Positions 642 to 60,491 of a DNA stretch of 64,000 nucleotides are shown here, piece after piece. A model generated the notes under the pieces. It was given only the letters and a program-made list of their open reading frames with translations. It was not told where the DNA came from and ran no database searches. Location: contig CAVXTH010000006.1 in assembly GCA_963764625.1 (NCBI GenBank), forward strand, positions 1,085 to 65,084. Direction: 5' to 3'. Position numbers and translations under genes: made by a program. Within the stretch, counting starts at the first letter, position 1; every line of letters begins with the position of its first letter. This DNA is from Candidatus Krumholzibacteriota bacterium. GTDB lineage: Bacteria > Krumholzibacteriota > Krumholzibacteriia > JAJRXK01.

Positions 642-1235
642 ATGCGTCCACTTCGAATCCTATTTCTGTCCGCACTTGTGACCGGGCTCGTCGTGAGTTC
701 GGTTCTTGCTGGCACCTTGTGCGGGACAGTCCGTGACGCGCAGACTCTGAATCCCGTTCCAGCTGCCGGTATTTTCCTCTACCAATCGAACGTCTACACC
801 GGTCTGAACACCGCCAGTGATAACGCGGGCCAGTACTGCCTCAGCGCGGTTCCTCCCGGCACCTATGACATCGAAGTGCGCGTCGATGACTACCAGACTG
901 CGTGGGTCACTGGGGTCGAAGTTCCAGACGACGCCACTGCGGTCGATCTCTTTTCCTCGGTTCCTGCGGAGCTCGATGCGCCCTGGCCCAATCCCTCGGG
1001 CTCTCAGGTGTTCTTCCGCTATCGCTTGGGCACCACGGTTCCGGTGCGCTTGCTCGTCTACGACGTCCGCGGACGAGTGATCCGCGGATGGGCCGGTCGC
1101 GGCGGTACCGGTGAAACGGAACTTCGCTGGGATTTCCGTGACGACACCGGTCACCCCGTCGCGTCCGGTCTCTACTTCGTCCAGCTGCACGCGGGAGAGC
1201 GTGTTCTCACCCGCCGTCTCGTGCGGATTCGTTAG
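642..1235 (+). CDS. secreted carboxypeptidase-regulatory-like (CarbopepD_reg) domain protein with FlgD-Ig/T9SS-type C-terminal domain
   Basis: ATG at 642 begins a signal-peptide-like N-terminus (MRPLRILFLSALVTGLVVSSVLAG). CTVRD...GTYDIEVR is a CarbopepD_reg-like fold. The C-terminus ...ASGLYFVQLHAGERVLTRRLVRIR matches the Por_Secre_tail pattern. Terminates with tandem TAG-TGA. Confidence 0.6.
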   Translation: MRPLRILFLSALVTGLVVSSVLAGTLCGTVRDAQTLNPVPAAGIFLYQSNVYTGLNTASDNAGQYCLSAVPPGTYDIEVRVDDYQTAWVTGVEVPDDATAVDLFSSVPAELDAPWPNPSGSQVFFRYRLGTTVPVRLLVYDVRGRVIRGWAGRGGTGETELRWDFRDDTGHPVASGLYFVQLHAGERVLTRRLVRIR

Positions 1236-1249
1236 TGAAAGGAATCTCC

Positions 1250-3595
1250 ATGCGCTCGGCATCCTTGATTCTCGCCTTTTTGATTTTGGTGGTGCTTCCT
1301 CTGGGATGTGGTCAAGAGCAAGGCACGCTCGATCCGCTTCCCGCTTCCAAGGAGCTCGTGGTGGCTGGGACGGTGCGCGATGAGACGGGGGCGCCTCTCG
1401 CCGGCGCCACCGTCGGCTTGGAAGTGGCGACGAATGGAATCGTCGCGAGCGTGCAGGAGCTGATGGATCAGAGGCCCGCAGCGGTCGCGGTGAATCAGCC
1501 GACTTCGTCCAAGCTGGCCGACGCGCCATTCGCGAAGAGTCTGCTCAGTGCGGCTTCGAAGCAGCGGGTGTTGAGCGATACCAACGGGCGTTACGTATTC
1601 GGCGATCTGTCTCGTGGTGTCTACGCGCTGGAAGGCAGCCTCGAGGATCATCTGGCCTCGAGCCAGCGCATTGACTTGATGCTGGCGGCGGCGGGCACGA
1701 CCTACGTCGACATCGATCTCACCCCCACCGGATCCTTCTGGGGCAACGCCCAGCTGGAGAACACCAGCAATCATCAGGGAAGCGTGGTCTACGTCGAAGG
1801 AACCTCCTATGTGGCGGTGACGGATCCGGCGGGGGACTATCACATCGCGGGGGTGCCCACCGGCAGCTGGACCGTGCGGGCCCAGCATCCCGGCTATCTA
1901 GAGGATTCCACCAGTGGGATGATCACAGCGGCGGGGGATTCGATTCCCTTGAGCCAGTTGTATCTGCCGCTCGACGCGAACATTCCGCCGGTGGCCGGCA
2001 TCTCGGGCCTCATCGGTCCTTTCACGCAGAACGAAGTCATCAACTTCGATGGGAGCGGCAGCGATGCCGATGGCTCGGTGGTGTATTACGAATGGGACTT
2101 CGAGGATGACGGCGTCTTCGACTGGTCCGATTCCAATTCCGCCGCGACCACCCACGCGTATCCCGACACGGGGATGGTCCGCGTCAAGTTGCGGGTGACT
2201 GACGATAAGGGTGCCACCGGGCTCGCGGCGGCGAGCTTCGACATCGTCGAGACTCCCACCATCTATGTTTCGACCAGCGGTTCGCCCGGTGGAAGTGGTA
2301 GCTCTGCCGATCCACTGGGCTCGATCAACGCGGGAATTGCGGAAGCTCAAAATCAGGGGATTCAATACGTTCTGGTTTCCGAGGGAACATTCGCGGAGGC
2401 GGTCAATCTGGTCGATGGAATTTCCGTGCTGGGGGGCCGTGTGCCGACGAGTGGCTGGGCCGAGAGTGCGCTCGGCTTCACCGTGTGTAATTCACCCAGT
2501 GGAACCTCCTCGACCGCCAATGGAATCACCGCGGGCACGATCGTGCGCCGCCTGCACTTCGTCGCGCCCAGCTCGGCCAGTGGGAATTCAATCGGCCTGT
2601 ACAGCAAGAACTGCGGTGCCGCGCTCGAGTTTCAGGAGTGCAACTTCGCATCCGGGAACGGTGCCGCGGGTACGCCCGGCGTGGCCGGCGCGATCGGGAC
2701 CATCACCGGCAGCTCGGGTGCTGCGGGCTTGGCGGGAAGTTGCGACAGCTCGAACGGGGCCGGAGGGAGCGGTGGCTCGGGTGCTTGTTATGGTGGACAT
2801 GGTGGGGCAGGAGGGGCTGAAGGGGCCAACCCTGGTTCATCCGGTTTCACCGGCGGTTGTGGTGGCGGCGGTGGCGGTAGTGGTGGGGCTGCGAGCAACA
2901 ATGGCACGCTCTCCTGCAACGATGCGGGGAATCCCGGGTACGGCGGAGGGGCGGGTGCGAGCGGGTCGTATGGGCCGACCGGTTTGGCGGGAAGTCCTGC
3001 TGGGAGCGTGGTGTCCGAGAACTGGCTGCCTTTCGATTCGTCGGACGGCGGCAACGGTACCGACGGTCGTGGTGGTGGTGGTGGCGGTGGCGGTGGAGGC
3101 CAAGGCGGCACGGTCTGCAATGATGGCGGTGGCAACGGCGGTGGTGGCGGCGGTGGCGGTGGGGGTCACGGATACGGTGGCCACGGAGGCGGCGGCGGCT
3201 ATGGGTCGTTCGGAGTGTTCATGTACAATTCCTCGCCTTCGTTCAACAGCTGTGTCTTCCAGAGCGGGAACGGTGGAAACGGCGGGAGTGGTGGCAGCGG
3301 AGGCGCAGGCAGGCCGGGTGGGTCGGGCGGATCTGGCGCGACCGTATGTACCTCCGAAGTCGGGCGCGGTGGCAACGGCGGTCATGGTGGAAGCGGTGGC
3401 GGAGGCGGTGGTGGCGCCGGAGGTCCGGGAGGGCCGAGTTGGGGGGTCTACCAGGCGGGCAGCAGCACCGCGACGATCCTCTCGCCGACCTACTCGGTTG
3501 GCACTTCCGGTCAGGGCGGTGCGGGCGGCGCGACTCCTGGTGGACCTGTGGCTCCCAGCGGCGCCAACGGTCTCTCCGGCAACGTCGGGCCCTGA
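1250..3595 (+). CDS. large secreted (lipobox LGCG) multidomain protein: CarbopepD_reg-like repeats, PKD domain, beta-helix-like region and ~300-aa Gly-rich low-complexity tail
   Basis: RBS aaagga precedes ATG 1250. Signal/lipobox MRSASLILAFLILVVLPLGCG. The PKD-like segment is FDGSGSDADGSVVYYEWDFEDDGVFDW...VRVKLRVTDDKGATG. Residues ~480-780 are poly-G/S/A/N. Confidence 0.6.
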   Translation: MRSASLILAFLILVVLPLGCGQEQGTLDPLPASKELVVAGTVRDETGAPLAGATVGLEVATNGIVASVQELMDQRPAAVAVNQPTSSKLADAPFAKSLLSAASKQRVLSDTNGRYVFGDLSRGVYALEGSLEDHLASSQRIDLMLAAAGTTYVDIDLTPTGSFWGNAQLENTSNHQGSVVYVEGTSYVAVTDPAGDYHIAGVPTGSWTVRAQHPGYLEDSTSGMITAAGDSIPLSQLYLPLDANIPPVAGISGLIGPFTQNEVINFDGSGSDADGSVVYYEWDFEDDGVFDWSDSNSAATTHAYPDTGMVRVKLRVTDDKGATGLAAASFDIVETPTIYVSTSGSPGGSGSSADPLGSINAGIAEAQNQGIQYVLVSEGTFAEAVNLVDGISVLGGRVPTSGWAESALGFTVCNSPSGTSSTANGITAGTIVRRLHFVAPSSASGNSIGLYSKNCGAALEFQECNFASGNGAAGTPGVAGAIGTITGSSGAAGLAGSCDSSNGAGGSGGSGACYGGHGGAGGAEGANPGSSGFTGGCGGGGGGSGGAASNNGTLSCNDAGNPGYGGGAGASGSYGPTGLAGSPAGSVVSENWLPFDSSDGGNGTDGRGGGGGGGGGGQGGTVCNDGGGNGGGGGGGGGGHGYGGHGGGGGYGSFGVFMYNSSPSFNSCVFQSGNGGNGGSGGSGGAGRPGGSGGSGATVCTSEVGRGGNGGHGGSGGGGGGGAGGPGGPSWGVYQAGSSTATILSPTYSVGTSGQGGAGGATPGGPVAPSGANGLSGNVGP
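2650..3590 (+). repeat. GGN-codon-rich low-complexity DNA tract encoding the glycine-rich tail; generates long spurious ORFs in other frames
   Basis: Runs of ggcggtggcggtgg... The overlapping six-frame ORFs 2211..3629(+), 2788..3135(-) and 2837..3385(-) are proline/alanine-rich artefacts. Confidence 0.5.
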
Positions 3596-3719: not shown

Positions 3720-3795
<76 letters not shown>

Positions 3796-3996
3796 GATAA
3801 CTCCCACCGACAGAGAATCTTAGAGAACCGTTAAGGAAGGACCAACAGGTACGGTTGGTTCATTAGGTTACTCTGAGGTTACTCCTCGGCTCCTGGACCT
3901 TCAAGTTTCGATCCACTTCTACCCATCTTCAGGCTGTCCTTACCAAAAACTCCATCGGCCTTGCCTGACTTGAACTTACAGCGTCCGGGCTGCTAG

Positions 3997-5022
3997 GCTT
4001 TTTGGACGCTAAATCTGATCCTACACCTGCTTGCCACCGCATTTCGATCCCGCCGTTCGCTCATCCTGGAAAATATCGCCCTCCGCCATCAGCTTCAGGT
4101 CCTGGGTCGTCGGAAACAGCGTCCTCTCTTGAAGGACCGGGATCGAACCGTTTGGATTCTCCTGCGACGAATGTGGCCCGACTGGCGAGGCTCTCTGGTC
4201 ATGGTCCGGCCCGAAACAGTGATCGGATGGCATCGGCGGGGATTCCGAGCGTTCTGGGCACGAAAGAGCCGCAAAGGCCAGCAGGGTAGACCACAGCTCT
4301 GGCGCGAGACGCGCGAACTCATCCGGCAAATGGCTCACGACAACCCCACCTGGGGAGCGCCGCGGATTCATGGGGAACTGTTGAAGCTGGGAATCGAGCT
4401 CAGTCCCACCACCGTCGCCAAATACATGAAGCGAACCGGGCCACCATCTCAGAGCTGGAAGACCTTTCTCGAGAATCACGCCAAGGAAATCGTCTCGGTG
4501 GACTTCTTCACGGTTCCAACCATTACCTGCCGGGTTCTTTACGTCTTTCTGATGGTTCACAATGCTTCGCGGAGGATCGTGCACTTCAACGTTACGGATC
4601 ATCCGACAATGGACTGGGCCGCTCAGCAGCTTGTGGAGGCGTTTCCTTGGGATTCGGCTCCCAAGTATTTGCTACGCGATAACGACAAAATCTACGGTTG
4701 GGACTTCACTTCGCAGGTGGAGATACTGGGTATCGAGGACTGCTCGACCTCGTACCGCTCCCCCTGGCAGAATCCATAGATAGAGCGGCTGATAGGGTCG
4801 GTCCGCAGGGAGTGCCTCGATCGTGTGATCATCATGGGAGAGTGGCACTTGTGCCGAGTGATGCGCCAGTATGTCGAATACTACAATGGAAGCCGCACGC
4901 ACCTTGGACTGGCGAAGGACTGTCCGATCACGCGAGAGGTCGAGCCTCCAGATATTGGGCCGATCAGGCAGCGTCCCATGGTTGGCGGGTTGCATCACCG
5001 GTACCATCGGGAGGCAGCCTAA
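3997..5022 (+). mobile_element. degenerate insertion-sequence remnant (rve/DDE transposase family) adjacent to tRNA-Lys
   Basis: The open frame from 3997 encodes ...ILENIALRHQLQVLGRRKQRPLL...WGAPRIHGELLKLGIELSPTTVAKYM...SPWQNP*IERLIGSVRRECLDRV...YYNGSRTHLGL, i.e. HTH plus integrase-core motifs. There is no canonical start, and the frame holds an in-frame TAG. Confidence 0.6.
4021..5022 (+). pseudogene. DDE transposase (integrase core domain) pseudogene: in-frame TAG at 4777-4779 directly before the catalytic-Glu motif, no ATG start
   Basis: ORFs 4129..4779 and 4825..5022 are in the same frame, separated only by TAG. Homology is continuous across the stop. Confidence 0.65.
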
Positions 5023-5363
5023 GCGTGGATTCGAGGCCGGATGGAGTTAGTGGTAGCGACAGTTGCGGGGTTCTGGCGGACGGGGCCGGAATCTCTGTTT
5101 CGAGAGCGAGAGTTTGGGGGTCGGTGGGAACCGGTAGGGGTCACGATCGGACCCCGTTGGGTGGTCGAAAAACTCTCGGTTTCTCTGTTTTACGACCCTC
5201 TCGGATTTGACAGCGGGGTTCCGGGTGCGGCCCAGGTGTAACCCAGGCGGAGTGTGCCCAGTTTCGACGAAGACATGAAAGATAGCCATCGCATAGTTCG
5301 ATGAGGTATCGTAGACGCAATAGAATCGCGATTAAGATGTGTCCTTGATAGGAGAGAGGTACC

Positions 5364-6260
5364 TTGCGGATTCTTCAACATTTCAGTGCAAACCAGCTCA
5401 GGCTTTCTCCATTTCCTTTCCGGCGTGAGCTTTCGATGGAGTCATATCTTGTCGATAATCCTGATGTTCTGACTCTTGATGATGTGACCTACTGTGACCC
5501 GCAGATTCTCGATTCCGAATTCCATGTGAAAGGAGGGCGTGGAAGTCAGGGCGCTGACGGACGGATTGATATTCTCCTGAATTTCGGTGCTGAAACCATT
5601 GGCATCGCGGAACTGAAGCTCGGTGAACTACGGTCCGAGCACCTGGTCCAGCTTGAAGACTATTTGGCAGAAAAGGACCAGATTCTCCAAGGAGTCCCCG
5701 GGCTCAATGACCCAGATACGATTTCCGAACCAGGTTGGATCGGGTTGCTTGTTGGTGAGTCCATCTGCCCAGAACTATCCCTAAAATTGAGCCGAGGACA
5801 TCTGTCACCCGGAGGCATACCGGTTGCCGGCCTGACCCTGCGACGGTACATCTGCCCGCAGGGGAAAGACGTATATGTCGTCACCGATAGCTATTTCCCA
5901 ATGAAGACTCGTGATATGACGAAATACGAGTTCGACGGCAAGACCTATGGAAAAGGTCGATTGGTTCTTGCCGTTGTTAAGAAGCATGTCGAAAAGAACC
6001 CAGACTGTTCTTTTGCTGACCTAGAGGGACTCTTTCCGCCTTCTATTCAGGGAAGTCAGGGTGTCTTTACCAGTGAGGTTGGTGCCCGAGAGGTTTTTTC
6101 AAACTCAGGTAGAACGAGACACTTCTTGAAACCGGAAGAGATTGTGCAGCTCAGCGACGAGCGGATTGCTGTATGCAACCAGTGGGGTATTGGAAACATC
6201 GACAATTTCATTTCTGCGGCCGAAATCCACGGATATAGGATCGAAGTTGCGAGGTCGTGA
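5364..6260 (+). CDS. hypothetical protein with PD-(D/E)xK-type nuclease motif (restriction-endonuclease-like fold), unknown family
   Basis: Strong RBS ggagagagg precedes TTG 5364, with an alternative ATG at 5436 (MESYLV...). The motif DGRIDILLNF-x12-IGIAELKLGEL fits D...E-x-K. The gene sits in the low-GC island. Confidence 0.5.
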   Translation: MRILQHFSANQLRLSPFPFRRELSMESYLVDNPDVLTLDDVTYCDPQILDSEFHVKGGRGSQGADGRIDILLNFGAETIGIAELKLGELRSEHLVQLEDYLAEKDQILQGVPGLNDPDTISEPGWIGLLVGESICPELSLKLSRGHLSPGGIPVAGLTLRRYICPQGKDVYVVTDSYFPMKTRDMTKYEFDGKTYGKGRLVLAVVKKHVEKNPDCSFADLEGLFPPSIQGSQGVFTSEVGAREVFSNSGRTRHFLKPEEIVQLSDERIAVCNQWGIGNIDNFISAAEIHGYRIEVARS

Positions 6261-6308
6261 TTGCGATTCGGTCATACATGTATTCTACAGTGATCGAAGG
6301 GGTGGGAA

Positions 6309-8246
6309 ATGCCTGAAAAACCACGGTATCTGTCGAAGGGGCGATTTAAGATCGGAAGTGAATGCCCACGAAAACTCTACTATCTATCCCACCGAGACCA
6401 ATACGCGAATCAAAACGACCACGATGAATTCCTGAAGGCTCTGGCCGAAGGCGGGCACCAGGTAGGTGCCTTAGCTCAGGCGTATTTTCCTGGCGGCACA
6501 CTGATTTCTACCCTCGACTATGAAGAGTCGGTGGCACAAACGCTCAAGTTGATAGAGCAAGACAACGTCGTCATATATGAGCCGGCATTTTTGCTAGACG
6601 ACTTTTTCATCCGAGTGGATGTGCTTGTAAAAAGCGGTGATCAGGTTCAGTTAATCGAGGTCAAGGCCAAGTCATTTGATCGAGGGCGGGGTTTTCTAAC
6701 CAACAGGGGATTCCCGCGAGCTGGCAAAGAAAGCTATCTCGATGATGTGGCGTTCCAGACATGGGTCGTCCGTCAGTTCCGACCAGAGTGGGAAGTGATA
6801 CCGTACCTGATGTTGGTGGATAAAGACCGAATGGCAACCGTGGATGGGCTGCACCAACTGTTTCGAATTTCCCAGGACGATCAGGGAAGAACGGACGTGG
6901 TTCTGACTGAACCCGTGACCGCGGAGAGGCTGGGTCGCGAGCTTCTCACATTGGAGGATATGACGGAGTTCGTCGACCGCATTGAGGCGGGCACCATGCG
7001 CGACCTAACCAAGGTTCCCCCATACCAAGGAAATCCCATTGCTGAGCGAGCGGAAATGTTGGCCAGCATTTACCGCGATGGGACTCGTGTGCCGGCGGAA
7101 ATCGGCCAGAAGTGTAAAAAGTGTGAATATCGAAACAGTCCGAAGTCTGCGGCTATGGGGCTAAAAAGTGGCTTTGAAGAGTGCTGGGCGGAGAGCTTGG
7201 GGCCGGAGTTTAACCCAGATGTGCCTCTTGTCACTGATATTTGGAGCTTCACGAAAATAGGGAGGATGCTGGACCAAGGAGTCTGGAAAATGGCGGACGT
7301 TCCAGACATTGAATTGTCGGAATTCCACCGGCCTCAAGTTCGCGTCACCCTCGGCCAAGGGGAGGATGAGTGGGCCGCTCCCGCGCTGAGGGATGAGTTA
7401 GCTACATGGACCTATCCCCTGCATTTCTTGGATTTTGAAACCATCAGCCCAGCGATTCCATTCCACAAGGATCTCCATCCCTATGAGAGCGAGGGGTTCC
7501 AGTTTAGCTGCCACCATGTGGCGCAAGATGGGAGCATCACTCATGACCAGCACATAGCTAGGGAACCAGGGAAGTACCCCAGCTACGATTTCCTCGTCGA
7601 GTTGGAAAGGGTTTTGGGGCGGGACGAAGGCACAATTTTACGGTACTCGCCGCATGAGAACACGATTCTCAGGCACTTACGAAGAAACCTAGTCGGTCAG
7701 AGACCAGCTGTACCCGCGACGGTCGGTGTGGACGGCCTGATCGCGTTTATCGATAGCATTACGGCAAGCACGGGCCGTGAGCCCAATCACTTGGGGCCCC
7801 GCTGTATGGTGGATATGTATCCTATTGTGAAGAACCACTACTACCACCGGCGTATGGGTGGCAAGAAATCCATAAAGGCGGTGTTGGATGCGATGATATC
7901 CACGAGTCCAGTATTGAAGGAGCGATACTCGAAACCGCTGGAATTCGGGACGAACCTCCGGGGCATGGTTATGCACCAAGTGGACCCGGAGACCGGAATG
8001 ACCAGAGATCCCTATAGTTTGTTGCCTCCTGTATTTCAAGACGTGGAGCCAAGCCTCTTGAGCTTTTTTGAAGAAGACGAAAATTTGAAGGATGGCGGTG
8101 CCGCCATGACGGCCTTTGCGAAGATGCAGTTCACCGAGATGGGGGACGATGAACGAGAGGCCACAGTTCAAGCGCTGTTGAAGTACTGTGAGTTGGATAC
8201 GTTGGCGATGGTCATGGTTTGGGAAGGATGGGGAGGGTTGCAATAA
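6309..8246 (+). CDS. DUF2779-like two-domain nuclease: N-terminal Cas4/RecB-like PD-(D/E)xK domain with 4-Cys (Fe-S) signature fused to C-terminal DEDD (DnaQ-like) exonuclease-like domain
   Basis: N-term LSKGRFKIGSECPRKLYY. Motifs FIRVDVLVK...LIEVKAKS fit the D/E-x-K pattern. Cys cluster is C(19)...CKKCEYRN-x17-FEECW. Exo-I-like motif is LHFLDFETISP. The gene ends ...CELDTLAMVMVWE and lies in the low-GC island. Confidence 0.6.
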   Translation: MPEKPRYLSKGRFKIGSECPRKLYYLSHRDQYANQNDHDEFLKALAEGGHQVGALAQAYFPGGTLISTLDYEESVAQTLKLIEQDNVVIYEPAFLLDDFFIRVDVLVKSGDQVQLIEVKAKSFDRGRGFLTNRGFPRAGKESYLDDVAFQTWVVRQFRPEWEVIPYLMLVDKDRMATVDGLHQLFRISQDDQGRTDVVLTEPVTAERLGRELLTLEDMTEFVDRIEAGTMRDLTKVPPYQGNPIAERAEMLASIYRDGTRVPAEIGQKCKKCEYRNSPKSAAMGLKSGFEECWAESLGPEFNPDVPLVTDIWSFTKIGRMLDQGVWKMADVPDIELSEFHRPQVRVTLGQGEDEWAAPALRDELATWTYPLHFLDFETISPAIPFHKDLHPYESEGFQFSCHHVAQDGSITHDQHIAREPGKYPSYDFLVELERVLGRDEGTILRYSPHENTILRHLRRNLVGQRPAVPATVGVDGLIAFIDSITASTGREPNHLGPRCMVDMYPIVKNHYYHRRMGGKKSIKAVLDAMISTSPVLKERYSKPLEFGTNLRGMVMHQVDPETGMTRDPYSLLPPVFQDVEPSLLSFFEEDENLKDGGAAMTAFAKMQFTEMGDDEREATVQALLKYCELDTLAMVMVWEGWGGLQ

Positions 8247-8282
8247 GGCAAGAGTCTCGAATTCGCCGGGATACGAGAATCC

Positions 8283-8897
8283 TCATCTGAACCCGATCGT
8301 ACGCTCCAAAGCGTTGTCCGTGCCGACCGTTGAAAATTCTTTAACGACTTCTTCTACTACAAGTGCATGCCCTACTTTGATGGTCTCCGCCATCATCATT
8401 CTTCTGCGCACGAACATCAAAGGTACCGCGTTCCTATAGCGGAGAAGAACGAGTACGCACAGCAGGCAGAAGAACAGGCGCCAGAGCGATCCTTGAGCGA
8501 ATATCGCCACCAACGCTTGGGAGGCTGCTGGACTGTAAGTGTCGAGGGGGATGCCATCTGCCCCCTGAGCCGTGGAATAGCCGCTGAAGATGATGGCCAG
8601 ACTTTGGGCCGCTTTCATCCCGACCACTAGCCCGAAGAGCCAGAGCGCGAGCTTGTTGGCCCGATACTCGTTGCTCAGGTGCCGCGGGAGAAGCTTGTCG
8701 AGCATTACCGAACCTCCAAAGTGGCCCTTTATCTCTCTTCGGGGACCGACGAGAGAGAGTTGAGGCTCGTTATCCGAAAACACCGCAAGCCAGATGTCGC
8801 TGATCAAAGGGACCATCAACGGCTGCGAAACAACCCTCACTGTGACACGACTATGCTCCAGCATGACCCTTGTTGCAAACCAGAACAGGTCCCCCAA
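8283..8897 (-). CDS. hypothetical membrane protein (start uncertain)
   Basis: ORF holds 3-4 hydrophobic helices (LALWLFGLVVGM..., LWRLFFCLLCVLVLL). No recognisable family. Lower-GC context. Confidence 0.3.
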   Translation of the reverse strand: MGDLFWFATRVMLEHSRVTVRVVSQPLMVPLISDIWLAVFSDNEPQLSLVGPRREIKGHFGGSVMLDKLLPRHLSNEYRANKLALWLFGLVVGMKAAQSLAIIFSGYSTAQGADGIPLDTYSPAASQALVAIFAQGSLWRLFFCLLCVLVLLRYRNAVPLMFVRRRMMMAETIKVGHALVVEEVVKEFSTVGTDNALERTIGFR

Positions 8898-8951
8898 GCC
8901 CCCCCAAGACCAGTCCGGTGCCAGGTTCTTGGTGTAGGGTAGTCAGACCTT

Positions 8952-9922
8952 CCGAGACACTTCAGCTGCTAGAATAGCGCACACTGAAGGAGGTCTCGAT
9001 ATGAACCAAGAAGTGAAGGACATACTGGAAGCCCGGCGCAGATTCATCGTCCTGGAGTTCGCGCTGAAGAGCGGCAACATCGCCAAGGAATGCCGTGAGT
9101 TCGAAGTGCCAAGGTCTTCATTCTACAGGTGGAAGAAAGCCTACGAGGCAGGCGGGAAAGACGCCCTGCTCCGTAAACGCCCCGTAGCAAAACGTCACCC
9201 GCGGCAAATCCCACCAGAGTACGTCGAGAAGATTCTCCACCTGAAATCGACCTACCATCTCGGGCCTCAACGGATCGCCTGGTATCTCGAGCGCTACCAT
9301 GACTTCAAGACCTCCTGTTCAAGCGTCTACCGCACGCTCAAGCGCAACGGCGCGGTCCCCTGCCGCGACATGTTGGCCGCCGTGCAATCCACACCCGCCG
9401 CTACGCCAAAAGGGTCCCTGGCCATCAGATCCAGGTAGACGTGAAGTTCCTGAATCTGAGAACAGAGGATGACCGTAAGATCCGCCGCTATCAATTCACG
9501 GCCATTGATGATGCCACTCGCGTCCGTGCTCTGAAGATCTACCAGAGACATAACCAGAAGAGCGCCATCGACTTCATCGATTACGTGGTCGAGAAGTTCC
9601 CCTTTCGGATCCCCACCGTCAGGACGGATCGCGGCCACGAGTGGCAGGCTCAGTTTCACTGGCACGTCGAGGACAAAGGCATGCGGCACGTGTACATCAA
9701 ACCACGGTCCCCACAGTTGAACGGCAAGGTTGAGAGGTCGCACAGGACAGACCAGGAGGAGTTCTACCAGCTCCTGACGTACACGGATGATGTGGATCTG
9801 AATGCAAAGCTGAGGGAGTGGGAGAAGTTCTACAACCTCAGCCGGCCTCACGGAGCTCACAACGGGAAGACACCTTACGAAGCCCTGAAACGTCTGTTAG
9901 AATAGCGGCAGACTTGTCTCGG
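8952..9922 (+). mobile_element. IS481-family-like insertion sequence (~970 bp) with short terminal inverted repeats
   Basis: CCGAGACA at 8952-8959 is an inverted match to TGTCTCGG at 9915-9922. These flank the transposase. The size fits IS481-like elements. Confidence 0.55.
9001..9905 (+). pseudogene. IS481-family transposase (HTH + rve DDE) split by a frameshift near 9355-9362 (CCCC run)
   Basis: ORF1 ends ...YRTLKRNGAV. The frame of ORF2 read upstream gives PLPRHVGRRAIHTRRYAKRVPGHQIQVDVKFL...YQFTAIDDATR, contiguous IS481 homology. A 1-nt shift is therefore required. Confidence 0.65.
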
Positions 9923-9981
9923 GGGGTCCGGCATATCACAGCGGCATTCAAGTGGTCTCAGGAGCTCAGAAAGGTACCAAA

Positions 9982-10659
9982 ATGAAGATAGCAATCTCTC
10001 TCGCCATAGCATTGGGCAGCCTGCTCTCCTTCTCTACAGCGTTCGCCCAGAATATCGCCTTGACCTTTGACGAAGCTGGAACAACAAACATCCTTGATGG
10101 CCGCTCCGATCTCGTTCCCAACCCAGACATGTTCAATTATCCCTCTGTGATCGTATGGGTCATCGCGTATGACATTCCTGAACTCTCTGGATATGAGTAT
10201 AACCTGACCTCAACGGACGCATCTGCGATTGCGAGCACGCCGACCACTTATCCCTCCGAGGGTTCGGATTACGCTACCCTTCCCGGTGATGTTCGTGTCG
10301 ATACTGGGATCTGCTTCCAAGCGGGCGGCGCTGAAGCGGGACCCGACCCTACTCATATCCGCCTGGCGAAGCATCAGTTCACCTGGTTCTCACCCCCGGC
10401 CGTGGATGTGATCTACTGCATCAATCCTTCGCAGGCTTCGGTGAATCTGAGCGGCGCGACGGCTCCACAGTACACCCAGTGTATCTCGAACCCGCCTTCG
10501 AAGCTCTTCGGAATCGCCCGTGAGTCGTCCTTCAGCCCATGTCCTCCCGAAGGCTGCACATGGCTATACTTCGAGTGGGATCCAGATGGCAGGCCCACGA
10601 ATGGATGCATAATACCTACCGAAGCCCAGAGCTGGGGAACACTGAAGGCGGCATACTAG
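9982..10659 (+). CDS. secreted protein; founding member of a paralog family with conserved extreme C-terminal motif (...QSWGTLKAAY)
   Basis: RBS gaaagg precedes ATG 9982. Signal peptide MKIAISLAIALGSLLSFSTAFAQN. Ends with tandem TAG-TGA. A paralog sits at 47777-48455. Confidence 0.6.
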   Translation: MKIAISLAIALGSLLSFSTAFAQNIALTFDEAGTTNILDGRSDLVPNPDMFNYPSVIVWVIAYDIPELSGYEYNLTSTDASAIASTPTTYPSEGSDYATLPGDVRVDTGICFQAGGAEAGPDPTHIRLAKHQFTWFSPPAVDVIYCINPSQASVNLSGATAPQYTQCISNPPSKLFGIARESSFSPCPPEGCTWLYFEWDPDGRPTNGCIIPTEAQSWGTLKAAY

Positions 10660-11047
10660 TGAGAGAACAGGACAAGCAAGATAGTTTCGCCACGGTTGCC
10701 CAAGAGATCGAAAGCGGGTTTTTCGATAAGGGTCTTTGGGCAAGGGCCCACGTTCCGATGGGGGGACGACTTGGGGAGCTCCGAAGTCCAGGTTTTAGTG
10801 GACGCTGGCTGCAGACCTTCCCGAGGCTACCGGTGATTCGGGTATGGAAGGATCGAGTGTACCCGGGTATACAGGTACCTAGGTGGACGAGCAACCTGGT
10901 GACTCCGTAGCACCACCGCCGCCACTTCCTTCGAGAGAACTCTCCGCTAGAACTGCGAAATCACGAATCCACATGTCACATTCCTTCTTCCTAGCTCGTC
11001 TTGAGGGCGTAACACCCCACGACGAGTACGAACCAAGGAGTTGGGAC

Positions 11048-34591: not shown

Positions 34592-34946
34592 GGGGGCGAA
34601 GGGTTTCGACGGGAGCGGTTGGGCCCCGGATGGCGTGCCGACCACCTCATCAATGTCGTTAAAGTGGTGGGAAAACATAACTGACGAGCCTATGGCTCTT
34701 GCTGCCTAACTAAAGAGGTAGCCGTTCGCCGCGGATCGGGTCTCCGGGATCTGCGATGCGGGCGTCATATACCGGTGACTGGGCGTGGACCCGTCGTCTC
34801 AGGGAAAGCGTCGAGAACCAATGGGACTGGCGTCGCGCGGATCTCGTTCCCAGAGTTACGCGACGCGAGATTATCTGGGAACTACGCACGTAGAGGTCCG
34901 TGGTCGTCGTTTTCGGACGCGGGTTCGATTCCCGCCGCCTCCACCA
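34592..34946 (+). ncRNA. ssrA: tmRNA (SsrA), standard one-piece form
   Basis: 5' GGGGGCGAAGGGTTTCGACGGG with G3-U. The 3' tRNA-like end is GGACGCGGGTTCGATTCCCGCCGCCTCCACCA. The tag reading frame ends ...gct ctt gct gcc TAA (ALAA*) at 34695-34709. Confidence 0.9.
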
Positions 34947-45678: not shown

Positions 45679-45855
45679 ATGAATTGGAAGCGAGATCACT
45701 GGCTCATTCTGGGCCTCGTTTCGATCATGGCGGGCTTCACGCTTCTGGGGTTCTTCCAGAGTATGACGCTCTCCTCCATTCTCCTGGTGGGTGGATACTG
45801 TGTGCTCGTACCGGCCTATTTGTGGACGCGCTACCGGGGAGACGTGGGCGAATAG
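45679..45855 (+). CDS. small hypothetical membrane protein (58 aa); its last codons overlap tRNA-Val
   Basis: RBS aggaggg precedes ATG 45679. Two hydrophobic helices. Stop TAG at 45853-45855 lies inside the tRNA acceptor stem. Confidence 0.35.
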   Translation: MNWKRDHWLILGLVSIMAGFTLLGFFQSMTLSSILLVGGYCVLVPAYLWTRYRGDVGE

Positions 45856-45922
45856 CTCAGCTGGTTAGAGCACCTGCCTTACAAGCAGGGGGTCACAGGT
45901 TCGAATCCTGTTTCGCCCACCA
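45846..45922 (+). tRNA. tRNA-Val (anticodon TAC)
   Basis: 77-nt cloverleaf: acceptor gggcgaa/ttcgccc, anticodon loop cuUACaa, T-loop ttcgaat, encoded CCA. Confidence 0.9.
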
Positions 45923-60413: not shown

Positions 60414-60491
60414 GGGGGCGTAGTTCAGATTGGTTAGAACGCCGGCCTGTCAAGCCGGAGGTCGCGAGTTCGATCCTCGTCGCTCCCGCCA
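60414..60491 (+). tRNA. tRNA-Asp (anticodon GTC)
   Basis: 78-nt cloverleaf: acceptor gggggcg/cgctccc, anticodon loop cuGUCaa, T-loop ttcgatc, encoded CCA. Confidence 0.9.

Follow-up and report, generated by a model that had tools for sequence, protein, structure and literature searches.

The closest described relatives of the gene examined here are the proteins of the DUF2779 family (PF11074), which NCBI annotates as 'DUF2779 domain-containing protein'. Majorek et al. 2014 (PMC3985635) placed this family, as F.17, in the exonuclease clade of the RNase H-like superfamily, predicted 3'-5' exonuclease activity for it and reported its co-occurrence with a Cas4-like DUF83 domain of the PD-(D/E)xK type. 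A second study (mSphere 2026, PMC13621843) analysed MMSYN1_0389, a quasi-essential DUF2779 gene of JCVI-syn3.0. HHpred matched the N-terminal half of its product to 7MID and 4IC1 and the C-terminal half to MrfB (8UN9), and the D/E/K and DEDD residues were found conserved, with a Tyr replacing the His of DEDDh enzymes. According to the same study, residues equivalent to D104, E117 and K119 of the protein described below are conserved across PF11074, the Mycoplasma protein keeps just two of four cysteines, and the family is functionally uncharacterised. Other members that have been named are Mbov_0804 and the Ureaplasma UU173 family. Here we describe a member encoded at positions 6309-8246 of a 64,000-nucleotide stretch of contig CAVXTH010000006.1 from a Candidatus Krumholzibacteriota bacterium (the window, below). 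Its two domains, Cas4-like and DEDD(y), and its catalytic residues are those of the published proteins, but its clade retains all four cysteines where the Mycoplasma protein has two.

The open reading frame (ORF) of 645 codons, from ATG to stop, fills positions 6309-8246 of the forward strand exactly according to the ORF list and its translation. An identical protein is called on the public contig (locus L001), independently of the ORF list of the window, and the start and length match those of full-length homologs. The ORF had been singled out beforehand in a sequence-only reading of the window, which took it for a fusion of a Cas4/RecB-like Fe-S nuclease with a DEDD-type exonuclease-like domain; the gene call bears out the ORF as given there. 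The overall layout is as follows.

6309-8246, forward strand: complete ORF of a DUF2779-family two-nuclease protein, 645 amino acids (aa) plus stop (ORF list, translation, homologs, gene call on L001)
6309-7223, forward strand: Cas4/RecB-like PD-(D/E)xK nuclease domain, ~aa 1-305, with E91, D104, E117-x-K119, Q150 and four Cys
7224-7403, forward strand: helical linker between the nuclease domains, ~aa 306-365 (helices 317-322, 340-348 and 359-365 in the AlphaFold2 (AF2) model; alignment variable and gap-rich)
7404-8243, forward strand: RNase H-like DEDDy 3'-5' exonuclease domain (DUF2779/PF11074), ~aa 366-645

Opposite-strand ORFs that overlap the gene (e.g. 7689-8243) are the usual by-product of GC-rich sequence.

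The sole Pfam match of the protein is DUF2779 (PF11074), at E=5e-22 and 78.9 bits against a cut-off of 23.3 bits. It spans aa 372-521 and covers profile positions 1-126 of 126, so the family assignment that the sequence-only reading offered was right. NCBIfam yields only a sub-threshold match of the mollicute UU173 model to a 47-residue tail. The Pfam and NCBIfam scans revealed no helicase, ATPase, P-loop or any other domain. Neither PF13482 (RNase_H_2) nor any of the Pfam DEDD models matches the protein at E<=1. PADLOC (PADLOC-DB v2) returns only two marginal Cas4 matches (E ~0.006, aa 72-124 and 246-276). No chain in the PDB was found by sequence, either with the single protein or with a 38-sequence profile, and the gap to known structures is bridged by fold comparison only.

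A single search recovered over 1,800 homologs, far beyond what chance would give, and almost all of the top matches are full length at ~640 aa. Most of the 120 listed homologs show 97-100% query coverage, and in the alignments described below family members are collinear with the query over both halves. An exhaustive HMMER scan of 1.84 billion cluster representatives detected 5,758 clusters (50% identity) at E<=1e-3, 656 of them at E<=1e-30. The carrier species-level genomes belong to many groups, including Marinimicrobia, Bacteroidota, Gammaproteobacteria (Pseudoalteromonas, Alteromonas, Legionella), Bdellovibrionota, Clostridia, Cyanobacteria, Acidobacteriota, Planctomycetota, Leptospirales and others, at only ~38-45% identity to the query. 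Culturable carriers include Pseudoalteromonas lipolytica, Alteromonas lipolytica, Polaribacter irgensii and Chitinophaga agrisoli. We read the patchy distribution across phyla as a sign of horizontal spread.

The N-terminal domain contains the following elements.

6618-6665, forward strand: PD-(D/E)xK catalytic core, D104 (6618-6620), E117 (6657-6659) and K119 (6663-6665), invariant in 38 homologs and in more distant ones
6363-6365, forward strand: C19, first putative iron-sulfur (Fe-S) ligand, invariant
7113-7184, forward strand: C269-x2-C272-x19-C292, three further putative [4Fe-4S] ligands, invariant; a PADLOC Cas4 model aligns with aa 246-276

The motifs quoted in the sequence-only reading, SECPRK (aa 17-22, with C19), RVDVLVK (102-108, with D104), LIEVKAKS (115-122, with E117 and K119), CKKCEYRN (269-276, with C269 and C272), FEECW (289-293, with C292) and LHFLDFETISP (371-381, with D375 and E377), are all present and in the order stated. 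The spacer between CKKCEYRN and FEECW, given as 17 residues, is in fact 12. That reading had also named the four Cys and the D/E residues as positions whose conservation should be checked, and the lack of either nuclease fold as evidence against it. We aligned 38 homologs reaching down to 40% identity, and extended the alignment with three plasmid-borne members, two of which are epsilonproteobacterial proteins of ~490-510 aa at 27-29% identity. In the N-terminal half C19, C269, C272, C292, E91, D104, E117, K119 and Q150 are invariant in the 38 homologs and stay so when the plasmid-borne members are added. The domain has the alpha/beta fold of PD-(D/E)xK nucleases, the catalytic D ... (D/E)-x-K motif in invariant form, and one N-terminal plus three C-terminal cysteines that are invariant down to 27% identity. 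By analogy with homologous folds the four Cys are predicted to bind an Fe-S cluster, and the proposal of a Cas4/RecB-like N-terminal half, putatively of the Fe-S type, is supported.

Two further details concern the spacing of motifs. The RecB-family motif is Q-h-x-x-Y; the invariant Q150 is followed by an aromatic residue at +2 (Q-x-W/Y-V), not at +4. In Cas4 and AddB the cysteines are spaced C-x2-C-x5-C, with 5 residues before the last Cys, whereas the pattern of the present protein is C19 ... C269-x2-C272-x19-C292, which puts the last Cys 19 residues past the CxxC. The spacing varies within the family as well, since the Aliarcobacter member (locus L089) has C-x5-C-x5-C. The short epsilonproteobacterial members of ~490 aa also lack the segments ~aa 185-245 and ~aa 535-600, which appear as insertions in the present protein.

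The C-terminal domain contains four conserved elements.

7431-7439, forward strand: Exo I, D375-F-E377, end of strand beta-1 (371-379 in the model), invariant
7656-7658, forward strand: E450, putative carboxylate of Exo II, where the helix after strand 442-445 begins, invariant; placed by topology only
7812-7814, forward strand: D502 (in MVDM), conserved acidic residue after the 486-495 hairpin, present in 37 of 38 homologs and invariant among the distant members
8184-8198, forward strand: Exo III, Y626-C-E-L-D630 (Y-x3-D, the DEDDy signature), in the last long helix; at least 90% conserved, invariant among the distant members

H372, D375, E377, Q398, S400, H402, E450 and N451 are invariant in the 38 homologs, and D502, Y626 and D630 occur in at least 90% of them, the exceptions including one C-terminally truncated sequence. 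With the plasmid-borne members added, D375, E377, E450, D502, Y626 and D630 are likewise invariant. The domain has an RNase H-like exonuclease fold with Exo I as D-x-E and Exo III as Y-x3-D. Because Y626-x3-D630 lies in the last helix and the fold matches include family-B DNA polymerases, we assign it to the DEDDy subclass, which sharpens the earlier description of this half as DEDD-type. The fold relatives suggest that it acts as a 3'-5' exonuclease. By topology in the model, E450 would occupy the canonical Exo II position. DnaQ-like enzymes have a conserved 'D-T/S' residue that positions the substrate; D502 may be its counterpart, or may be an alternative Exo II ligand. In family-B polymerase and MrfB-type exonucleases Exo II reads N-x2-3-(F/Y)-D, whereas the corresponding region of the present protein reads H-E-N. 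An hhalign comparison of the C-terminal sub-alignment with an E. coli DnaQ sequence gave an uninformative probability of 0.14.

The AF2 model of the 645-aa protein has a pLDDT (predicted local distance difference test) of 90 and a pTM (predicted template modelling score) of 0.87. For the N-terminal domain the fold matches include Cas4 chains (202-218 residues), Dna2, Exo5, MGME1 and AdnAB; AddAB, RecE and phage-type exonucleases are also among the fold matches of the protein. The comparators of the C-terminal domain are the DEDDy domains of family-B DNA polymerases (PDB 5mdn, 4flt), whose polymerase domain is absent from the present protein, and the DEDDh repair exonuclease MrfB (PDB 8un9). 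Foldseek ranks the same families, with E-values that are not significant. Both folds could be assigned, and neither a missing fold nor a lack of conservation, which would have spoken against the fusion, was found. Two nuclease domains of distinct structure make up the protein, both with an active site that is strongly conserved and appears complete; it also has a conserved set of four Cys and lacks a motor domain. We regard its molecular identity as a DUF2779 two-nuclease protein of Cas4-like plus DEDDy composition as very probable, and the ORF encodes an intact and, judged from its sequence, probably active member of PF11074 with two different nuclease domains in one polypeptide.

Cas4 is one point of comparison for the N-terminal half, and its use in CRISPR adaptation suggests one alternative reading: the protein would be a true Cas4 that trims prespacers, its fused DEDD domain acting as a second trimmer in the manner of Cas2-DEDDh fusions. 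Unlike Cas4 (PDB 7mi4, 8d3l, 4ic1, 4r5q), the present gene has no CRISPR or cas context: no repeat array or tandem repeat occurs in the window or around the gene, and no Cas1 or Cas2 cluster is among the recurrent neighbours at 85 species-level loci (described below). The ~305-aa N-terminal domain is also larger than the matched ~200-aa Cas4 chains and is fused to a DEDDy exonuclease, and the sequence similarity to the PADLOC Cas4 models is marginal. We consider a CRISPR role extremely improbable and reject it for the present locus, which has neither an array nor an association with cas1 or cas2.

The protein also resembles AddAB, RecBCD and AdnAB, in which two nuclease activities of opposite polarity work at one DNA end; here this pairing is read from sequence and model. 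AddB in particular has a RecB-type nuclease braced by an Fe-S cluster, like the predicted N-terminal domain. In contrast to these complexes, the present protein is a single 645-aa chain with no helicase or ATPase motor, and its 3'-5' activity would come from a predicted DEDD fold and not from a second RecB-type domain. A Cas4-like domain is likewise paired with a clade-F RNase H-like exonuclease in COG2251/TM0106 proteins (PF13482 plus DUF83; PMC3985635); these belong to a different Pfam family and often carry tandem AAA domains (PMC3985635), of which the present protein has none. Dna2, Exo5 and MGME1 show no relation at the level of hidden Markov models and have different domain partners. Fe-S clusters are found in Dna2 and Exo5.

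A mechanism can be proposed from these likenesses. A [4Fe-4S] cluster held by the four Cys would brace the Cas4-like domain, in the way known from Cas4, AddB, Dna2 and Exo5. The Cas4-like domain would engage a free 5' single-stranded end and cut exo- or endonucleolytically, and two-metal catalysis by the DEDDy domain would remove nucleotides at the 3' end. Between them the two domains would break down or trim both strands at a linear or frayed DNA end with neither motor nor ATP, so that one small protein would do the job of the nuclease domains of AddAB or RecBCD, which there are paired with a helicase. The role would be to destroy or process foreign or broken DNA ends, in defence or in a response to DNA damage. 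The suggestion in the sequence-only reading of a dedicated DNA-end-processing or degradation enzyme is plausible by the same analogies.

The fold comparison also points to RNA. Many of the DEDD matches are RNases (ERI1, ERI2, RNase T, RNase D and ISG20), and a transposon growth screen in M. bovis, which lists a DUF2779 mutant, also recovered mutants of a nanoRNase and of a c-di-AMP phosphodiesterase. The protein might accordingly trim RNA 3' ends or degrade nanoRNA, or only one of its domains might be catalytic, with the Cas4-like half serving for binding or as a scaffold. Both active sites, including the PD-(D/E)xK triad with the four Cys, are invariant down to 27% identity, which argues that selection has acted on catalysis in both domains. 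We think an RNA role, or a single working site, very improbable.

The gene lies in a stretch of lowered GC content beside a tRNA gene.

3720-3795, forward strand: tRNA-Lys(CTT), bordering the low-GC island on its left side (ARAGORN, Rfam)
3800-10900, no strand: low-GC island of ~7 kb, limits approximate, with the nuclease gene, insertion sequence (IS) remnants and unannotated ORFs (composition profile)
5436-6260, forward strand: 274-aa ORF, 48 bp upstream of the nuclease gene, with a PDC-S57-like C-terminus (PADLOC, E=4e-8)

The GC content of the island is 0.51-0.58 as against 0.61-0.64 on both sides, and it drops from 0.64 directly downstream of the tRNA-Lys gene. A truncated HTH/rve transposase fragment lies at 4129-4779 (Pfam transposase/integrase match), and an IS3/IS481-like transposase is encoded in two frames, by an HTH ORF at 9001-9438 and an rve/rve_3 ORF at 9441-9905, both on the forward strand. 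The split reflects either a programmed frameshift or a pseudogene. A search for an att duplicate of the tRNA-Lys 3' end found none, and no inverted or direct repeats bound the island. The limits of the island are drawn from GC content alone, because there are no flanking repeats; together with the lack of a duplicated tRNA 3' end, this makes the island look old or degraded. The gene appears to travel alone in an island of low GC content beside tRNA-Lys that was acquired horizontally, a context that contrasts with the quasi-essential gene of Mycoplasma.

The 274-aa ORF matches the PADLOC defence candidate PDC-S57 over aa 156-270; it has no Pfam match and no meaningful PDB match. A 'GRIDILL...IGIAELK' stretch in its N-terminal part looks PD-(D/E)xK-like by eye. 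We considered whether it forms an operon with the nuclease gene and dismissed the idea, as it is not a conserved neighbour of DUF2779 genes: leaving aside L001, whose sequence is the same, tblastn similarity was found near one related locus only, where it is partial, ~9 kb away and on the other strand. Two further ORFs of the island match no family. One (8283-8897, reverse strand, ~193-204 aa) is also called on L001 and is hydrophobic and membrane-like by eye; the other (9952-10659, forward strand, 235 aa) has an apparent signal-peptide-like start. Elsewhere in the window, a 786-aa ORF with CarboxypepD_reg and PKD domains (1235-3595, forward strand) lies just upstream of tRNA-Lys in the higher-GC flank and is unrelated; a tmRNA gene (34592-34946, forward strand, Rfam 158 bits) has the predicted tag peptide DEPMALAA; and further tRNA genes are tRNA-Val (45846-45922) and tRNA-Asp (60414-60491).

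Each close relative with usable flanks adjoins different genes. The relative of 82% identity is adjacent to McrBC. At 78% identity the neighbours are a divergent cysteine desulfurase, a DUF4007 protein and a 1,084-aa protein, a set we take to be an Ssp/Dnd-type phosphorothioation arrangement. The 77% relative has a 1,567-aa DUF4011/AAA_11/AAA_12/MTES_1575 helicase upstream and ScoMcrA_N, a uracil-DNA glycosylase-like protein and GmrSD downstream. At 67% identity there are a WYL/WCX regulator, a double-AAA ATPase, a metallo-beta-lactamase (MBL), a SNF2 helicase, an N6/N4 methyltransferase and a transposase. The homolog of 62% identity (locus L005, 1-9950) follows BrxL at a distance of 57 bp, where a same-strand BREX PglX-PglZ-BrxL operon ends, and the 61% relative stands beside AbiEi/AbiEii and a serine recombinase. 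More distant members adjoin an AAA ATPase with a TIR protein, or TerB-like proteins.

To see which neighbours recur, ORFs within 6 kb of the gene at the 85 loci were clustered and the cluster representatives annotated. Most frequent are an HTH-WYL-WCX regulator (16 loci) and a double-AAA IetA/TRIP13-like ATPase (10); also recurrent are an HKD+SNF2 helicase (7), a type I restriction R subunit (5), an NT5C deoxynucleotidase (5), an MBL/RMMBL nuclease (4), DUF2130 (4) and an ADP-ribosylglycohydrolase (3). The order and orientation of all these neighbours vary among loci. As an internal control, gene density was determined by distance and normalised for available sequence. Per 100 kb, WYL genes number 3.7 at 0-1 kb and only 0-0.5 at 6-10 kb, and the density of AAA ATPases declines with distance from 3.1 to 0. 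Within 4 kb lie 15 of 18 WYL and 11 of 11 AAA genes; for near and far bins roughly equal in size, the binomial P is 0.003 and 0.0004. The linkage to WYL and AAA genes is real and is restricted to ~12-20% of the loci. At several of these (L002, L017, L025, L039, L053 and others) the genes form a loose module of WYL/WCX regulator, double-AAA ATPase, sometimes NT5C, then DUF2779, which sometimes continues with an MBL nuclease or an ADP-ribosylglycohydrolase; no description of this module was found in the searchable literature.

Among the distant plasmid-borne members the gene belongs to operons rich in ATPase genes. On the Aliarcobacter cryaerophilus plasmid pM830MA (L089, 1-12991) the ~490-aa DUF2779 gene overlaps its upstream gene by 14 nucleotides, in an operon that runs AAA family ATPase, 954-aa ATP-binding protein, DUF2779, split Mokosh-type (MkoC-like) helicase and dGTPase; this may be an undescribed multi-gene defence system. 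On a Helicobacter plasmid DUF2779 comes directly after an AAA ATPase gene, and Fic/Doc genes are close by. A single conserved ATPase partner was considered and rejected, the ATPases of the plasmid members not being homologous to the AAA cluster of the close clade. On the conjugative plasmid pPAES01 the gene stands beside an H-NS gene, with genes for a thermonuclease and a SOS-response-associated peptidase within a few kb.

Such contexts raise the question of whether the protein works for its mobile carrier, be it in the maintenance of a plasmid or island, in recombination after the manner of RecE and lambda Exo, or in countering host defences. The present gene does sit next to a tRNA gene and among IS remnants, its relatives have a recombinase and a transposase as neighbours, homologs occur in 31 plasmid records, pPAES01 included, and RecE and phage-type exonucleases are among the fold matches. 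Yet those 31 records come from 72,556, with 27 of the plasmids non-mobilizable, and none of 50,697 phage records encodes a homolog. The neighbour clustering shows no recurrent linkage to an integrase, relaxase or single-strand annealing protein (SSAP/annealase) either. A role for the carrier element rather than the host is in our view improbable. A phage origin was rejected, as the protein matches nothing in PHROGs and no phage genome; for the host role favoured below, the lack of phage records is neutral.

Some WYL regulators, PafBC and DriD among them, govern the response to DNA damage, and the linkage to WYL genes can be read in this sense. The enzyme would then belong to DNA repair or recombination and not to defence: induced through a WYL regulator of the PafBC/DriD type, a sensor of single-stranded DNA (ssDNA), it would resect or clean double-strand-break ends or damaged termini, as a compact, helicase-free counterpart of AddAB, RecJ or MrfB. 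The N-terminal domain resembles the repair and replication nucleases Dna2, Exo5, MGME1 and AdnAB, the C-terminal one resembles MrfB, WYL regulators lie near the gene in ~19% of loci, and the pPAES01 gene is a few kb from a SOS-response-associated peptidase. In M. bovis the DUF2779 mutant was found together with recD and holA mutants, and the Mycoplasma homolog is quasi-essential where no parasite is present (PMC13621843). Against this stand the patchy distribution over many phyla at ~40% identity, the low-GC island bounded by IS remnants, and gene neighbours that change from one close relative to the next, for the most part restriction, Abi or BREX genes and not genes of repair. WYL regulators (BrxR/CapW) also control defence islands. 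We find a pure repair enzyme, the chief alternative to our account, possible but rather unlikely. Defence and repair roles are not mutually exclusive across so large a family.

We give somewhat better than an even chance to the account as a whole, in which the gene encodes an intact DUF2779 two-nuclease end-degrader linked to defence or DNA damage. The role taken by itself, end degradation in defence or in response to damage, is suggested because relatives lie in hypervariable islands of restriction, BREX and Abi genes and a minority near a WYL-type regulator; its chance is at best even, or somewhat short of that. Several points weigh against this account. Fe-S binding, polarity and the choice of DNA over RNA are deduced from homologous folds, and several DEDD relatives (ERI1, RNase T) act on RNA. 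Two conserved residues, E450 and D502, compete for the place of the third metal-binding carboxylate. Searches of the accessible literature found no biochemical data on any DUF2779 member. Nor does the family count among recognised defence genes, since PADLOC lacks a model for it. In the window itself a search for WYL, AAA and HKD-SNF2 partners found none; among the 85 loci no neighbour is obligatory and 52 have no recurrent partner at all. The argument from defence islands is one of guilt by association, with the internal distance gradient as its sole control. Finally, the Mycoplasma member is quasi-essential in a parasite-free minimal cell (PMC13621843) and the M. bovis DUF2779 mutant was recovered in a growth screen, which suggests a housekeeping role in at least that clade.

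A bolder form of the defence account can be put forward only tentatively, and we think it unlikely: DUF2779 would be an unrecognised, widespread effector of defence islands, a helicase-free, dual-polarity 'DNA-end eraser' of the linear ends of phages and plasmids. It would act alone or back up RecBCD or AddAB after restriction. At a subset of loci it would be switched on by the adjacent ssDNA- or damage-sensing WYL regulator and AAA ATPase, and in the RecBCD-poor Mollicutes it would have been co-opted as an essential end-processing nuclease.

As a discovery the gene carries little weight. It is an ordinary member of a family already catalogued in Pfam, and its Cas4-like plus DEDD architecture has been published twice; the interpretation given in the sequence-only reading is right and is a rediscovery of that work (PMC3985635, PMC13621843). 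Beyond these papers nothing further on PF11074, or on a Cas4, DEDD and WYL combination, was found in the searchable literature. Three leads are likewise absent from it: the differing defence systems beside each close relative, the distance-dependent linkage to WYL and AAA genes, and the retention of all four Cys outside the Mollicutes. The family they concern comprises thousands of sequence clusters in most bacterial phyla, and one of its members is quasi-essential in JCVI-syn3.0. If its proteins are indeed motor-less nucleases that act on both strand polarities, they could also make a useful reagent.

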